Origin: a virus
Lineage: Duplodnaviria; Heunggongvirae; Uroviricota; Caudoviricetes
IMG/VR virus record: IMGVR_UViG_2565956719_000009
Strand: one strand, 5' to 3'
DNA length: 31,137 nt
Shown piece after piece: positions 4,856 to 16,788 of the stretch. Position 1 is the first letter of the stretch, and each line of letters starts with the position of its first letter. Under the pieces are notes generated by a model. It searched no databases. It saw nothing but the letters and a program-made list of their open reading frames with translations, and had not been told where the DNA came from. The position numbers and the translations under genes were made by a program.

Positions 4856-5761
4856 CTATATTTCCAGACACCTGTTATCACTTAACCCATTACTGGCTTG
4901 CTGCCGTAGATATTCCCGTGGCGAGCGATAACCCAGTGCACTATGCGGATGCCATTCGTTATAATGCTCGAACGCCTCTGCAAGGTTCTTTGCTGCCGTT
5001 AACCCGTCTGGTTTGGGCATGACACTGATGTAGTCACGCTTTATCGTTTTCACGAAGCTCTCTGCTATGCCGTTACTCTCCGGACTCCGCACCGCCGTGC
5101 TCTTCGGTTCAAGCCCCAACATCCGGGCAAACTGCCGTGTTTCATTAGCCCGGTAGCATGAACCATTATCCGTCAGCCACTCTACTGGAGACGCCGGAAG
5201 CTCGTTGCCGAAGCGGCGTTCCACCGCTCCCAGCATGACGTCCTGTACTGTTTCACTGTTGAAGCCGCCCGTAGTGACCGCCCAGTGCAGTGCCTCACGG
5301 TCACAGCAGTCCAGCGCGAACGTGACTCGCAGTTTTTCTCCGTTATCACAGCGGAACTCGAACCCGTCAGAGCACCATCGCTGATTACTTTCTTTCACAG
5401 CCACTCTGCCTGTATGTGCCCGTTTCGATGGCGGTACAGCAGGTTTTCGCTCAAGCAACAGCGCATTCTGGCGCATGATCCGGTAAACACGTTTGGCATT
5501 GATCGCAGGCATACCATCAAGTTCTGCCTGTCTGCGAAGCAGCGCCCATACCCGACGATAACCATACGTGGGCAGCTCTCCGATAACATGGTGTATACGG
5601 AGAAGCACATCCGTATCATCAGTGTGACGACTGCGGCGGCCATCCATCCAGTCATCGGTTCGTCTGAGAATGACGTGCAACTGCGCACGCGACACCCGGA
5701 GACAACGGCTGACTAAGCTTACTCCCCATCCCCGGGCAATAAGGGCGCGTGCGCTATCCAC
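4856..5761 (-). CDS. insD: IS2 transposase OrfB (InsD)
   Basis: 301 aa, near-identical to IS2 InsD as recalled ([46 protein letters not shown]...). Confidence 0.9.
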
Positions 5762-6084
5762 TTTTTTGCCCGTCCATATTCAACGGCTTCTTTGAGGAGT
5801 TCATTTTCCATCGTTTTCTTGCCGAGCAGGCGCTGGAGTTCTTTAATCTGCTTCATGGCGGCAGCAAGTTCAGAGGCAGGAACAACCTGTTCTCCGGCGG
5901 CGACAGCAGTAAGACTTCCTTCCTGGTATTGCTTACGCCAGAGAAATAACTGGCTGGCTGCTACACCATGTTGCCGGGCAACGAGGGAGACCGTCATCCC
6001 TGGTTCAAAGCTCTGCTGAACAATTGCGATCTTTTCCTGTGTGGTACGCCGTCTGCGTTTCTCCGGTCCTAAGACATCAATCAT
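5719..6084 (-). CDS. insC: IS2 OrfA (InsC), HTH protein; fused to InsD by -1 frameshift
   Basis: Internal start [41 protein letters not shown]... matches IS2 InsC; overlaps insD; A6G slippery heptamer on the minus strand at ~5762-5768. Confidence 0.9.
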
Positions 6085-6247
6085 CTGCTCTCCAATGACT
6101 AGTCTAAAAACTAGTATTAAGACTATCACTTAAATAAGTGATATTGGTTGTCTGGTGATTCAGGGGGCCAGTCTAGTCCGGCGCACGCACTCCACTTCAC
6201 CCGTGGAGAACTCCTTAATTACCAACCTTAGCTTCGTTGGTTAGCTA

Positions 6248-11498: not shown

Positions 11499-12185
11499 AT
11501 GACCCCAATAAAAATATTTATGACTATTGCTGATTTCAAACGGCCTAAATTGGAGCTCCCAAACGGGGCAAACAAACTACTACTGCACTCTTGCTGTGCT
11601 CCATGTTCCGGTGAAGTGATGGAGGCGCTTCAGGCCTCGGGAATCGACTACACCATCTTTTTCTACAACCCGAACATTCATCCTCAGAAAGAGTATTTAA
11701 TTCGTAAGGATGAAAATATTCGCTTTGCTGAACAACACGGCGTGCCGTTTATCGATGCTGATTACGACACCGACAACTGGTTTGAACGTGCCAAAGGAAT
11801 GGAATGGGAGCCTGAGAGGGGGATCCGTTGTACCATGTGTTTTGACATGCGTTTTGAGCGGACAGCGTTGTACGCTGCTGAAAATGGTTTCAGTGTGATC
11901 AGCAGTTCACTGGGCATTTCACGCTGGAAAAATATGCAGCAGGTTAACGAGTGTGGGCGGCGAGCTGTTGCGCATTATCCGGGTATGGTGTACTGGGATT
12001 ATAACTGGCGCAAGCAGGGCGGCTCGTCCCGTATGATTGAAATCAGCAAGCGCGAAAAATTCTATCAGCAGGAATATTGTGGCTGTGTGTATTCTCTGCG
12101 CGATACCAATCTACACCGCAAATCTCAGGGACGCCCTCTTATCAAAATTGGCCAACTCCACTACGGAAAAGAAGAGAAGGAGTGA
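11499..12185 (+). CDS. queH: QueH-like epoxyqueuosine reductase (DUF208 family), prophage-borne
   Basis: 228 aa with the DUF208/QueH hallmarks as recalled: [39 protein letters not shown]; preceded by a 150-bp intergenic region with promoter-like hexamers. Confidence 0.7.
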
Positions 12186-13019: not shown

Positions 13020-14075
13020 GTGCGGGTATTACTTCGACCTGTTCTGGTACCGGAACTCGGGCTGGTGATCGTTAAGCCGGGCCGTGAATCCATGCCGGTA
13101 TTCCACAATACCCGGGTACTGGTGGAGCCGGAACCGAAAAGCATGCGTAATCTGCCGTCCGGGGTCGTTCCTGCCGTTCGCCAGCCGCTGGCGGAGGATA
13201 AATCATTACTGCCATTTTTCAGCGACGAACGAGTGATTCGTGCTGCTGGTGGCGCTGGCGCATTGTCTGACTGGTTACTGCGCCATGTTAAATCCTGCCA
13301 GTGGCCACACGGCGATTATCACCACAGTGAAACCGTCATTCACCGTTATGGTACCGGCGCAATGGTGTTGTGCTGGCACTGCGACAACCAGCTGCGCGAC
13401 CAGACCTCCGAATCACTCGGGCAACTTGCTCACCAAAACCTGTCTGCATGGATGATTGACGTCATACGCCATGCAATGAATGGCTCGCAGGAGCGGGAAT
13501 TATCGCTGGCTGAATTATCCTGGTGGGCGGTCCGCAATCAGGTGGCGGACGCGCTACCGGAAGCGGTATTACGTCGTTCGCTGGGGTTGCGTGCGGAAAA
13601 AATCCGCTCAATGTACCGTGAAAGCGACATCGTACCGGGAGAGCAGACCGCCACCAGCATACTGAAGCAGCGCACAAAAAATCTTGCGCCGCTGCCTCAC
13701 GCCCACCAGCAAAACCCGCCACAGGAAAAGACGGTGGTCAGCATTGCCGTTGATCCGGAGTCACCGGCTCAGTATCTCCAGCGCCAGAAATCACAACGGG
13801 AAGAGATGCCTGTATACACGCGTTGGGTAAAAACGCAGAAATGCATGACGTGTGGCAATCAGGCAGATGATCCGCATCACATCATTGGTCATGGACTGGG
13901 AGGGATGGGAACAAAGGCTGATGATTTGTTTGTTATTCCGCTGTGCCGTAAATGCCATAGCGAACTACACGCCGGGGTAAAAGATTTTGAAGAAAAACAC
14001 GGCAGCCAGCTGTTGTTGCTGATTCGTTTTTTAATGCACGCGAGAAATTCGGGTGTTCTGAAGTGGAAAGCATAA
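13020..14075 (+). CDS. DUF968-like protein (YdfU-like) with C-terminal Cys/His HNH-like motif
   Basis: 351 aa; C-terminal CMTCGNQADDPHHIIGHG..LCRKCHSELH; directly upstream of rusA as in Qin/DLP12-type nin regions. Confidence 0.7.
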   Translation: MRVLLRPVLVPELGLVIVKPGRESMPVFHNTRVLVEPEPKSMRNLPSGVVPAVRQPLAEDKSLLPFFSDERVIRAAGGAGALSDWLLRHVKSCQWPHGDYHHSETVIHRYGTGAMVLCWHCDNQLRDQTSESLGQLAHQNLSAWMIDVIRHAMNGSQERELSLAELSWWAVRNQVADALPEAVLRRSLGLRAEKIRSMYRESDIVPGEQTATSILKQRTKNLAPLPHAHQQNPPQEKTVVSIAVDPESPAQYLQRQKSQREEMPVYTRWVKTQKCMTCGNQADDPHHIIGHGLGGMGTKADDLFVIPLCRKCHSELHAGVKDFEEKHGSQLLLLIRFLMHARNSGVLKWKA

Positions 14076-14441
14076 ATGACTGAACGCATAGAATTTGTTT
14101 TGCCTTACCCGCCAACGGTGAACACTTACTGGCGACGTCGTGGCAGCACATATTTTGTATCAAAAGTCGGTGAGCGTTATCGCCGTGATGTGGCGCTTAT
14201 TGTTCGCCAGCAGCAACTGAAATTAAACCTGTCCGGAAGGCCGGCAATAGAAATTATTGCAGAGCCACCGGATAAGCGCCGTCGTGACCTGGACAATATC
14301 CTGAAGGCACCACTGGATGTACTGACGCATGCGGGGCTGCTCATAGACGACGAGCAGTTTGATGAAATTAATATTGTGCGCGGTCAGCTTGTTCCTGGTG
14401 GGCGGTTGGGGATAAAAATCACAGAACTGGAGTACGCATGA
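14076..14441 (+). CDS. rusA: Holliday-junction resolvase RusA
   Basis: 121 aa; LPYPPTVNTYWRRRG...PDKRRRDLDNILKAPLDVLTHAGLLIDDEQ matches RusA catalytic-region motifs. Confidence 0.85.
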   Translation: MTERIEFVLPYPPTVNTYWRRRGSTYFVSKVGERYRRDVALIVRQQQLKLNLSGRPAIEIIAEPPDKRRRDLDNILKAPLDVLTHAGLLIDDEQFDEINIVRGQLVPGGRLGIKITELEYA

Positions 14442-15127
14442 ATAACCAGTATTTACAGTTTGTTCGTGAGCAACTCATGATTGCCACCGCCGATTTGAGT
14501 GGATCAACAAAAGGGCAGCTTGAGGCCTGGCAGGAGAATGCCATGTTTGATACAGGGCGTTACAGGCGTAAAAAAATCCGGTACCGCGATGAAGTGACTG
14601 GAAAAATGATAACGCGGGATAATCCACCAATCCCGGGAAAGCAATCGCTGGCGAAGGGGGTGTCAATTCCTCTCGTCAGTCCGGTTGAGTTTTCGACATC
14701 ATCGTGGCGGCGGGCTGTTCTGTCTCTTGAAGAACATCATAAAGCCTGGTTGTTGTGGTGTTACAGCGGGAGTATTTGTTGGGAATATCAGATCGCGATA
14801 ACGCAGTGGGTGTGGAATGAATTTAAAACCCGGTACGGCACCAGAAAAATTGCAGGGAAAACGCAGGAGCGCGTGAAGAAGTTGATCTGGCTGGCGGCAC
14901 AGGATGTCAGAGGATGGATTACCGGGTGTGAGGTCTACCAGAGACAGGAGCTTGCCAGACTGTGTGGAGTTAAGCCTGATAACTGGAGCCATAATTATGC
15001 GAACTACTGGCGTGAGATGTGCGATATTTTTAAGAGTCTCGATAGAGAATCTGTGATTTGCACCGTGAAAATAAGAGCGCAACAAAAAGCGACTTTTTCA
15101 CGACGAGATATTGCAAAAGTCAATTAA
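14438..15127 (+). CDS. Putative late-gene antiterminator (Q-position protein)
   Basis: 229 aa; last gene of the nin-like block, start overlaps the rusA stop, followed by a promoter-like element plus hairpin/T-run; several Cys pairs could bind zinc. Call is positional only. Confidence 0.45.
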   Translation: MNNQYLQFVREQLMIATADLSGSTKGQLEAWQENAMFDTGRYRRKKIRYRDEVTGKMITRDNPPIPGKQSLAKGVSIPLVSPVEFSTSSWRRAVLSLEEHHKAWLLWCYSGSICWEYQIAITQWVWNEFKTRYGTRKIAGKTQERVKKLIWLAAQDVRGWITGCEVYQRQELARLCGVKPDNWSHNYANYWREMCDIFKSLDRESVICTVKIRAQQKATFSRRDIAKVN

Positions 15128-15142
15128 ATAGCGTACGTTTCG

Positions 15143-15219
15143 TATAAATCTGATATTTTGCCGATTTTGTACGCGATGGCAAAGTAAGAAAAAAAACTGC
15201 CGTCAGGCGGTTTTTTTTT
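15143..15219 (+). promoter_or_regulatory. Candidate late promoter pR' with a tR'-like terminator
   Basis: TATAAAT at ~15143-15149; downstream A8-CTGCC-GTCA-GGCGG-T9 hairpin (15190-15219) flanked by A- and T-runs. Confidence 0.3.
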
Positions 15220-15341
15220 ATGCCCAAAATCGCGTCAGTACAGTAAACACGCTGGTGGTTGCGAATACGGGTCTTTCAGCTTGCTGGCTTTTTCGACAAG
15301 AGTTATTGGTATGTCACGTTAACCGGAAAAAGGAAAAAGAC

Positions 15342-15539
15342 ATGCTAAAACAGCAGGATATGACAGAAACCGCCAGAGTGGTGTTTAATGAATTAAGCGT
15401 TACCGAACCGGCGACAGTCGGGGAGATAGCGCAGAATACTTACCTTTCACGCGAACGCTGCCAGTTAATACTGACCCAGCTGGTTATGGCGGGTCTGGCA
15501 GACTATCAGTTCGGTTGTTACAGACGCCTTCAGTCCTGA
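15342..15539 (+). CDS. Small hypothetical protein, winged-helix-like
   Basis: 65 aa from internal ATG (MLKQQDMTETARVVFNELSVTEPATVGEIAQNTYLSRERCQLILTQLVMAGLADYQFGCYRRLQS), preceded by AAAGGAAAAAG; stop lies inside a terminator hairpin. Confidence 0.4.
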   Translation: MLKQQDMTETARVVFNELSVTEPATVGEIAQNTYLSRERCQLILTQLVMAGLADYQFGCYRRLQS

Positions 15540-15548
15540 AGGCTTTTT
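15525..15548 (+). terminator. Rho-independent terminator
   Basis: GCCTTCAG-TC-CTGAAGGC perfect inverted repeat followed by TTTTTT. Confidence 0.6.
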
Positions 15549-15689
15549 TATTTGTGGTAAATGGGCGGCTGGTGGGTGTTAGGGGCACCCACCAGCCATC
15601 TGCTCATGCGTTGGGTTCACAAGCAAACCTCAGGCCCACTGCTTTGCGCAAAAGCAGAATGAGCCTATCAGAGACAGGCTTAATGATCC

Positions 15690-16739
15690 ATGCTTAATAC
15701 TGTAAAAATATCCAGTTGTGAGTTAATCAACGCCGACTGCCTGGAATTTATCCGGTCGTTACCCGAAAATTCTGTTGACCTGATAGTCACGGACCCGCCG
15801 TACTTTAAAGTGAAGCCTGAGGGCTGGGATAACCAGTGGAAGGGCGACGATGATTACCTGAAGTGGCTGGACCAGTGTCTGGCGCAGTTCTGGCGGGTGC
15901 TGAAACCTGCCGGAAGTCTTTACCTGTTCTGTGGTCATCGCCTGGCATCTGATATCGAAATCATGATGCGTGAACGCTTCAGTGTGCTGAACCATATTAT
16001 CTGGGCGAAGCCGTCCGGACGCTGGAACGGATGCAACAAGGAAAGGCTGCGGGCGTATTTCCCCGCCACAGAGCGCATTCTGTTCGCGGAACATTATCAG
16101 GGGCCGTATCGTCCGAAAGATGCCGGGTATGCGGCGAAGGGCAGTGCACTGAAACAGCATGTGATGGCCCCGCTGATTTCTTACTTTCGTGATGCGCGCG
16201 CGGCCCTGGGGATAACGGCAAAACAGATTGCAGATGCCACAGGAAAGAAAAACATGGTGTCGCACTGGTTCAGTGCCAGTCAGTGGCAGCTACCGAATGA
16301 AAGCGATTATCTGAAATTACAGGCGCTGTTTGCCCGGGTGGCAGAAGAGAAGCATCGGCGTGGTGAACTGGAAAAGCTCCACCACCAGCTGGTGGATACG
16401 TATACCTCACTGAACCGGCAGTATGCGGAGCTGCTGAGTGAATATAAACATCTGCGGCGGTATTTTGGCGTGACGGTGCAGGTGCCGTATACCGATGTGT
16501 GGACGCATAAACCGGTGCAGTTCTATCCCGGGAAACATCCGTGCGAAAAACCGGCAGAAATGCTGCAGCAGATAATCAGCGCAAGTAGCCGTCCTGGTGA
16601 TCTGGTTGCGGATTTTTTCATGGGGTCGGGTTCAACGGTAAAAGCGGCGATGGCACTGGGGCGTCGTGCGATTGGTGTTGAGCTGGAGACCGGACGTTTT
16701 GAGCAGACAGTCAGGGAAGTTCAGGATTTAATCGTTTGA
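15690..16739 (+). CDS. DNA methyltransferase, DPPY-type (N6-adenine or N4-cytosine), orphan
   Basis: 349 aa; catalytic motif IV LIVTDPPY near the N-terminus and AdoMet motif I DFFMGSGST near the C-terminus (beta-class order); no adjacent restriction endonuclease ORF. Confidence 0.85.
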   Translation: MLNTVKISSCELINADCLEFIRSLPENSVDLIVTDPPYFKVKPEGWDNQWKGDDDYLKWLDQCLAQFWRVLKPAGSLYLFCGHRLASDIEIMMRERFSVLNHIIWAKPSGRWNGCNKERLRAYFPATERILFAEHYQGPYRPKDAGYAAKGSALKQHVMAPLISYFRDARAALGITAKQIADATGKKNMVSHWFSASQWQLPNESDYLKLQALFARVAEEKHRRGELEKLHHQLVDTYTSLNRQYAELLSEYKHLRRYFGVTVQVPYTDVWTHKPVQFYPGKHPCEKPAEMLQQIISASSRPGDLVADFFMGSGSTVKAAMALGRRAIGVELETGRFEQTVREVQDLIV

Positions 16740-16788
16740 AACGGATGAGATTGCAGAATTAATTACGCACCATTATTATTCTGCTCCC

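Follow-up and report, generated by a model that had tools for sequence, protein, structure and literature searches.

The gene at positions 15690-16739 (+ strand) of the IMG/VR virus record IMGVR_UViG_2565956719_000009, a Caudoviricetes sequence of 31,137 nucleotides whose whole length is hereafter called the window, was found to encode a predicted beta-class N6-adenine DNA methyltransferase, which, judged by its sequence, is an ordinary member of the already characterised M.EcoGI/M.EcoGII family. It is probable that the gene product is a non-specific m6A methylase, carried in a late cassette and protecting the phage progeny DNA; within this account we infer the non-specificity of this particular allele, its late, Q-dependent expression and the anti-restriction benefit. 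The family itself is already known, having been described in 2012-2018. M.EcoGII is a beta-class enzyme of 349 aa, in which DPPY is N-terminal and FxGxG C-terminal, and is encoded by a prophage of E. coli O104:H4 C227-11, and both M.EcoGI and M.EcoGII have been found experimentally to methylate every adenine, whatever its context (Murray et al. 2018, PMC5778455). The type enzymes are dimeric and AdoMet-dependent, and their N6-methylation of adenine in any context extends to dsDNA, ssDNA and, weakly, RNA.

The reading frame runs without interruption from ATG to TGA over 349 aa, at exactly the coordinates first stated for it. It matches the Pfam family PF01555 (N6_N4_Mtase) over aa 29-340 with E=3.6e-43 and 148.5 bits, against a curated cut-off of 26.7 bits, and the PADLOC model MTase_II (type II methyltransferase) in full length with E=3.4e-165. 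The methyltransferase ORF is thus real, with matches far beyond chance. The catalytic DPPY occupies aa 35-38 (nt 15792-15803) and the AdoMet motif FxGxG, here FMGSG, occupies aa 310-314 (nt 16617-16631); since the former is N-terminal to the latter, the motif order is that of the beta class, and the proposal of a beta-class amino-methyltransferase made in the first-pass annotation is borne out by both the Pfam match and the order of the motifs. A phage methyltransferase of the Dam type (alpha-class, GATC), in which FxGxG is N-terminal to DPPY, is ruled out by this reversed order. The NCBIfam matches are to beta-class models, all of them far under their equivalog cut-offs. The gene family is under purifying selection, because the pairwise dN/dS against homologues is 0.06-0.27. 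The closest solved structures are PDB 8urk/9c3u ('Methyltransferase'), M.RsrI, CcrM and M.MboIIA, which have the catalytic Rossmann core and the DPPY...FxGxG order in common with the window enzyme (E=1e-25 to 1e-15); however, they align only with aa 8-141 and 269-343, so that the central region of ~130 aa is left without a counterpart, and they are sequence-specific, unlike the M.EcoGI/M.EcoGII clade. The AlphaFold2 description of this clade comprises a central target-recognition domain (TRD) of a four-helix-bundle/HTH type and a charged linker (PMC11551740).

The sequences of both type enzymes were taken from the chromosome of E. coli O104:H4 C227-11 (NZ_CP011331.1), in which the genes were located by BLAST. 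The translation of the gene at 1474103-1475152 equals the M.EcoGII published in Table S1 of PMC11551740, bar three obvious reading slips; the Table S1 sequence itself was machine-read with errors (HH for HI, RRR for RR, a dropped Y) and, taken as read, gives a lower bound of 94.8% identity to the window enzyme. Exactly 16 of 349 positions distinguish the first C227-11 copy from the other one, located at 2234080-2235129 (333/349 identical), and the latter was taken as M.EcoGI because this figure agrees with the published identity of M.EcoGI and M.EcoGII, 333/349 (PMC5778455). The window methyltransferase is identical, without gaps, to M.EcoGI at 340 of 349 positions (97.4%) and to M.EcoGII at 333 of 349 (95.4%), and in sequence it is nearer to M.EcoGI than M.EcoGI and M.EcoGII are to each other. 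Eleven of its 16 differences from M.EcoGII are residues of M.EcoGI, while five residues are unlike both type enzymes: R119, A212, R223, L230 and A246, with A212 and A246 being also present in the phages 1720a-02 and phiP27, and R223 and L230 in close relatives such as strain N32. The methyltransferase is colinear with M.EcoGII across aa 135-260, where 12 substitutions are found, and 12 of the 16 differences fall in aa 148-254, that is, in the TRD/linker part. The cluster at 90% identity to which the window enzyme belongs also contains a natural protein that is one residue (K244Q) off M.EcoGII.

Megablast of the gene against phage records returned 38 matches. Phage 1720a-02 ranked first, with a nucleotide identity of 94.8%, and after it came many Stx2-converting phages as well as phiP27; in comparison with phiP27, the central region is the most divergent (77% nucleotide identity). 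The enzyme of phage 1720a-02 has been called 'very similar' to M.EcoGII (Murray et al. 2018, PMC5778455). Two ancestral enzymes obtained by reconstruction, Anc291 and SUPREM, to which the window enzyme is ~84% and ~70% identical, respectively, are active on both DNA and RNA, and no preference for a motif was discernible in their mapping on RNA (Ochiai et al. 2024, PMC11551740). The first-pass annotation had considered that the target site is not deducible from the sequence, and this statement fails, because the window enzyme is 95.4% and 97.4% identical to M.EcoGII and M.EcoGI, which are both non-specific: the target can be predicted from sequence as any adenine, and no specific site is expected for the window allele.

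The window is a lambdoid prophage, and a close relative is integrated beside ompW. Upstream of the methyltransferase are located the genes for QueH (11499-12185), for a DUF968/HNHc_6 protein (13020-14075; Pfam HNHc_6, PHROG 96 'HNH endonuclease'), for RusA (14076-14441) and for Q; the DUF968 gene is a common one in the replication-to-Q region. Downstream, an intrinsic terminator at 17053-17078 (+), found by the terminator scan, stands 3' of the tRNA block, and is followed by more terminators and sRNA-like repeats, a nanS-p remnant, a phage 21-type holin (18510-18725), an IS element and lysozyme. Among the ORFs scanned with Pfam and PADLOC, which span ~1.4-19 kb of the window and include one at 22.3 kb, no restriction endonuclease was detected, nor is any annotated in the syntenic relatives, where just ordinary lambdoid genes are present. 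The methyltransferase is therefore an orphan, in agreement with the earlier claim.

The Q antiterminator gene (14438-15127, + strand, 229 aa) is of the phage-82 type, with a match to Pfam PF06323 (Phage_antiter_Q) at E=1.4e-83, and its product shares 66% identity with the phage 82 Q and 62% with the Q82-like protein that phage 434 encodes. A candidate late promoter was placed at 15111-15139 (+), with the -35 hexamer TTGCAA at 15111-15116, a 17-nt spacer and the -10 hexamer TACGTT at 15134-15139; in phage 434 a TTGCAA-17-TATACT aligns with it at the end of the Q82-like gene, and in both 434 and the window a GC hairpin with a T-run then follows. In the window this hairpin, carrying a run of nine T, is an intrinsic terminator of the tR' kind at 15199-15220 (+), found by the terminator scan and in the RNA fold (z = -3.8 for 15140-15225), and its position matches that of the terminator annotated in phage 434 at 49-74 nt past the Q stop codon. 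The TTGCAA-17-TACGTT element and the hairpin are thus read as the presumptive pR' and tR', based on this alignment. The scan for sigma-70 consensus promoters gave no + strand promoter between Q and the methyltransferase gene and did not flag the pR' candidate. Terminator-like sites over both strands numbered 17 against 4.4 expected, several of them being on the + strand in the interval from Q to the holin gene, and at least two terminators (15199-15220 and 15526-15552) precede the methyltransferase.

Six contexts were compared, namely the window, phages 1720a-02 and phiP27, strain MS8345, and the M.EcoGI and M.EcoGII loci, across which the Q genes and the sequence just 5' of the hairpin are of unrelated types. 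In the five other contexts the homology with the window sets in at the terminator hairpin or shortly 5' of it and extends from there over the leader and the 65-aa ORF to the methyltransferase and the tRNAs. At least three distinct Q types stand 5' of the cassette in the IMG/VR loci, and 15 of 70 loci did not match any of the four types that were tested. Because the homology begins at the terminator hairpin behind unrelated Q types, we infer that the cassette belongs to the Q-antiterminated late transcript. The description of the gene in the first-pass annotation as lying in the late leader upstream of the tRNAs was found to be apt, as it is positioned between Q and the tRNA/lysis genes, directly after the tR'-like terminator. 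No trace of methylation by M.EcoGI or M.EcoGII is seen in the lysogen (PMC5778455), and for M.EcoGII both silence in the lysogen and toxicity on expression have been described (PMC5778455; PMC12707154). The cassette position behind tR' agrees with a Q-dependent late expression and with this published silence and toxicity.

The cassette begins with a conserved leader (15225-15341, +), which shares 91% identity with phages 1720a-02 and phiP27 despite their Q/pR' regions being unrelated to those of the window. Then follows an ORF of 65 aa (15342-15539, +), which belongs to PHROG 331 (E=1e-37) and gave no match in Pfam or NCBIfam; some of its copies are named 'TrmB family transcriptional regulator' by RefSeq. 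In a sample of 77 IMG/VR loci with methyltransferases at least 95% identical, for which the denominators vary per feature, this ORF is directly 5' of the methyltransferase in 72 of 73 loci, and in the phage records listing both positions it is found ~350 nt 5' of the methyltransferase, down to ~50% identity. Its end is overlapped by the second intrinsic terminator (15526-15552, +), identified by the terminator scan and seen as a hairpin when 15520-15710 is folded. The 137-nt spacer up to the methyltransferase start codon (15553-15689, +) is highly structured according to the RNA fold: for 15520-15710 the predicted folding energy is -75.9 kcal/mol (z = -4.2, 0/200 shuffles as stable), and the fold places the start codon inside a stem. 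The Rfam scan of the leader and spacer (15225-15689) gave no family above threshold, and the matches to STnc370, P26 and the Phe leader, which were far under threshold, were treated as chance.

Three tRNA genes on the + strand complete the cassette: one with the CAU anticodon (16789-16864), called Met by ARAGORN while the identical gene is annotated by RefSeq as tRNA-Ile, tRNA-Arg (UCG) at 16872-16948 and tRNA-Arg (UCU) at 16962-17038. The tRNA block is directly 3' of the methyltransferase in 66 of 69 IMG/VR loci, and the methyltransferase is located between Q and tRNA Ile/Arg/Arg in the window, in both C227-11 loci and in strains MS8345 and N32. The same Q-methyltransferase-tRNA arrangement is present in phiP27, with two tRNAs annotated, and phage 1720a-02 has no annotated tRNAs, yet the DNA of the tRNA block aligns just 3' of its methyltransferase with 93.7% identity. 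Leader, 65-aa ORF, methyltransferase and the three tRNAs thus form a mobile unit that lies directly after tR'. That the 65-aa ORF and the structured spacer form a dedicated control device, delaying or limiting the translation of the methylase after the Q antitermination, is a rather doubtful suggestion; such a device would bear a loose resemblance to Com/Mom of phage Mu or to the C-proteins of restriction-modification systems.

M.EcoGI of C227-11 (WP_000935536.1, 2234080-2235129) has the same length of 349 aa, with no indels and nine substitutions relative to the window enzyme, including the private R119 of the latter, and its locus has the same order of QueH, HokD, DUF968, RusA, Q, 65-aa ORF, methyltransferase, tRNA Ile/Arg/Arg, nanS-p and holin. 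However, the Q at that locus has 273 aa and belongs to another type than the window Q, which has 229 aa and is of the phage-82 type, and the nanS-p deletion and the IS insertions are features of the window prophage only. M.EcoGII (WP_000935520.1 / EGT69837.1) shares with the window enzyme its length, N-terminus and C-terminus, differing by the 16 substitutions considered above, and its locus carries the same cassette of 65-aa ORF, methyltransferase and three tRNAs 3' of a tR'-type terminator; in contrast to the window, the late-promoter region there belongs to the 933W type, and Q is separated from the cassette by two genes on the opposite strand. The methyltransferases of phage 1720a-02, the Stx2a/Stx2c-converting phages and phiP27 (L24) show 87-95% protein identity and lie, as in the window, between Q and the tRNAs, but most of them are of 352 aa with a different C-terminal tail, and the stx genes that follow the tRNAs in these phages are absent from the window.

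The following course of events is proposed. In the lysogen, the pR' transcription would halt at tR', and the toxic enzyme would not be made. On induction, the Q-modified RNA polymerase would pass the terminators at 15199-15220 and 15526-15552, and the methyltransferase would then be made together with the lysis and structural genes and could methylate a large share of the adenines in the replicating phage DNA before packaging. The likely benefit would be a broad protection of the progeny DNA against the m6A-sensitive restriction systems of the next host. The anti-restriction role of the M.EcoGI/M.EcoGII family is assumed in the literature and not demonstrated, the biological function of M.EcoGII being stated as unknown (PMC11551740). 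The literature search yielded no paper on hypermethylated virion DNA or on the in-vivo methylation of phage DNA by this family, and nothing on phiP27 L24 or on a Q-dependent expression of the methylase. A functional analogue, and only that, is Mom of phage Mu, which is a promiscuous adenine-modifying protein of a temperate phage, silent in the lysogen, toxic and late (PMC12707154). Its protein and chemistry are unrelated to those of the window methyltransferase, and adenine is not methylated by it. Mom adds an acetamido/carbamoylmethyl group. It has Com as a dedicated translational activator, whereas for the window cassette a comparable control is only hypothesised.

The default of the first-pass annotation, a sequence-specific orphan beta-class methyltransferase with an unpredictable site, is improbable. 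The concentration of the differences from M.EcoGII in the TRD/linker part and the strong divergence of the central region from phiP27 would fit a sequence-specific enzyme; however, M.EcoGI and M.EcoGII differ from each other by 16 residues, mostly in the same region, and are both non-specific (PMC5778455), and most of the window differences are simply M.EcoGI residues. Moreover, the absence of a discernible motif preference on RNA extends to ancestral variants with as little as ~70% identity, and the nearest named site-specific relative, M.PflMI, is just 27% identical to M.EcoGII (PMC11551740). The probability is close to nil that the DUF968/HNH protein at 13020-14075 is a nuclease with which the methyltransferase forms a restriction-modification pair. 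The HNH endonuclease annotations of this protein and its occurrence 5' of the methyltransferase in 56 of 62 IMG/VR loci speak for such a pair, but RusA and Q stand between the two genes, the protein has no PADLOC match to a defence or restriction model, and no DUF968 gene is annotated within 4.5 kb upstream of the cassette in phiP27; on these grounds it was rejected as the cognate nuclease. For a methylase without a recognition site, a restriction partner would also be senseless.

It is rather unlikely, although of a greater probability than the above, that the window allele is attenuated or inactive, with S119R disrupting the needed homodimer and the gene decaying in a prophage too damaged to matter. 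The substitution, encoded by the Arg codon AGG at nt 16044-16046, is the only private one, as Ser119 is shared by all the 77 IMG/VR loci, every cluster member sampled and both type enzymes. It lies within the stretches aa 97-110 and 116-140 that were reported as the conserved dimer interface of enzymes eluting as dimers (PMC11551740), namely in the second of them, and it is the sole deviation of the window enzyme from M.EcoGII in these stretches, so the S119R allele might be an attenuated variant. The prophage is damaged as well: an IS3-family element of 1,310 bp with a 3-bp duplication is inserted at 18940-20249, between the holin and lysozyme genes, a second one is found at ~4856-6129, and a 1.48-kb deletion took out most of nanS-p. 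Because of these insertions and the deletion, the prophage may no longer be inducible. However, none of them falls within the Q-to-tRNA segment, the ORF is of full length with every motif intact, and a surface change of Ser to Arg is often tolerated. The exact R119 protein was, furthermore, found on 543 contigs, and in E. coli MS8345 the gene is 100% identical in nucleotides behind another Q type. Of 5426 complete E. coli genomes, 1978 (36%) carry related genes, at up to six places per genome. A main role other than the protection of phage DNA, such as RNA methylation, including that of the adjacent phage tRNAs, or the reprogramming of host DNA transactions in lytic growth, is very improbable. 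The methylation of ssDNA, RNA and DNA:RNA hybrids by M.EcoGII in vitro (PMC5778455) and the linkage of the methyltransferase with the tRNA block are in line with it, but the initial rate on RNA is ~90-fold under that on DNA (0.12 vs 11.12, PMC11551740 Table S3), part of the tRNA block is absent from some homologues, and in phiP27 only two tRNAs are annotated.

The gene is one more allele in an enzyme family that is already characterised and in commercial use, with little discovery value in itself. M.EcoGII is sold as a reagent and is applied in chromatin footprinting, e.g., in SMAC-seq and SAMOSA. For the M.EcoGI/M.EcoGII clade, the automatic label 'site-specific DNA-methyltransferase' is probably wrong.

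The relationship between the window and the corresponding prophage of E. coli strain MS8345 is mosaic, as judged by the comparison of their sequences. The gene of the N6-adenine methyltransferase (MTase) is 100% identical in the two, as is the window interval 17000-21600 when the insertion sequence is left out, whereas the leader together with the 65-aa ORF upstream of the MTase reaches an identity of only 94.6% (regions compared, 15199-15700 vs 15690-21600), and the type of the Q gene differs. This contrast between the MTase with its downstream part and the leader with Q places the putative recombination breakpoints near the MTase start. The MTase allele shared with MS8345 includes a private Ser-to-Arg substitution at codon 119 (16044-16046), and Arg119 was found in none of the 77 IMG/VR homologues at least 95% identical to the enzyme, nor in the type enzymes M.EcoGI and M.EcoGII. 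The stretch holding residue 119 has been reported as a conserved dimer interface of the enzyme family (PMC11551740).

The deletion in nanS-p, the SASA esterase gene, is likewise shared with MS8345: the gene is reduced to its N-terminal DUF1737 part (remnant 18014-18241, deletion junction near 18218-18239), with about 1,484 bp of the sequence of strain N32, which carries a related prophage, lost from the window. Missing from MS8345, whose stretch otherwise matches at 100%, is the IS3-family element of 1,310 bp (18940-20249, minus strand; ORFs at 19869-20195 and 18982-19872), which lies between the genes of the holin and the lysozyme, where it interrupts DUF1327/YdfR and is flanked by a 3-bp target duplication. 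A second IS3-family transposase pair (HTH_Tnp_1 and rve) is located on the minus strand at 4856-6129, within the early-left part of the prophage.

In 72 of 73 IMG/VR loci, the MTase is immediately preceded by the 65-aa ORF (15342-15539, plus strand; PHROG 331). In the phage records listing both positions, among them SfV, cdtI, mEp460, Hafnia yong2 and Citrobacter phiNP, this ORF lies about 350 nt away on the upstream side, an arrangement persisting down to about 50% identity. The methylase may be regulated by the product of this ORF. Some of its RefSeq copies are labelled 'TrmB family transcriptional regulator'. The plus-strand spacer that separates the MTase start from the second terminator (15553-15689) was folded as RNA at -75.9 kcal/mol (z = -4.2), far stabler than shuffled sequence, with the MTase start codon within a predicted stem; no Rfam family was matched by this spacer.

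Downstream of the MTase, the plus-strand tRNA gene with the anticodon CAT (16789-16864) was assigned to Met by ARAGORN, but the identical gene is labelled tRNA-Ile in RefSeq, and its counterpart in the phiP27 record is called ileZ; the CAU anticodon carrying the lysidine modification decodes Ile codons. The same phage encodes a homologue of the tRNA-modification enzyme QueH, the epoxyqueuosine reductase (11499-12185, plus strand; Pfam E=1e-65), placed between the replication genes and Q and found also in strain N32 and at the M.EcoGI locus of E. coli C227-11. The stretch from the tRNAs to the lysis genes holds three plus-strand copies of the Rfam sRNA family STnc100, at 17114-17304, 17343-17516 and 17582-17791, two of them strong and one weak (161, 136 and 30 bits, against the Rfam gathering score of 47), each with a terminator at its end; in the Stx phages, this position is occupied by the stx genes.

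The 90%-identity cluster of the MTase comprises 4,845 members, and many of the database entries are named 'site-specific DNA-methyltransferase', a name which is probably wrong for this clade, because its characterised members are devoid of site specificity.
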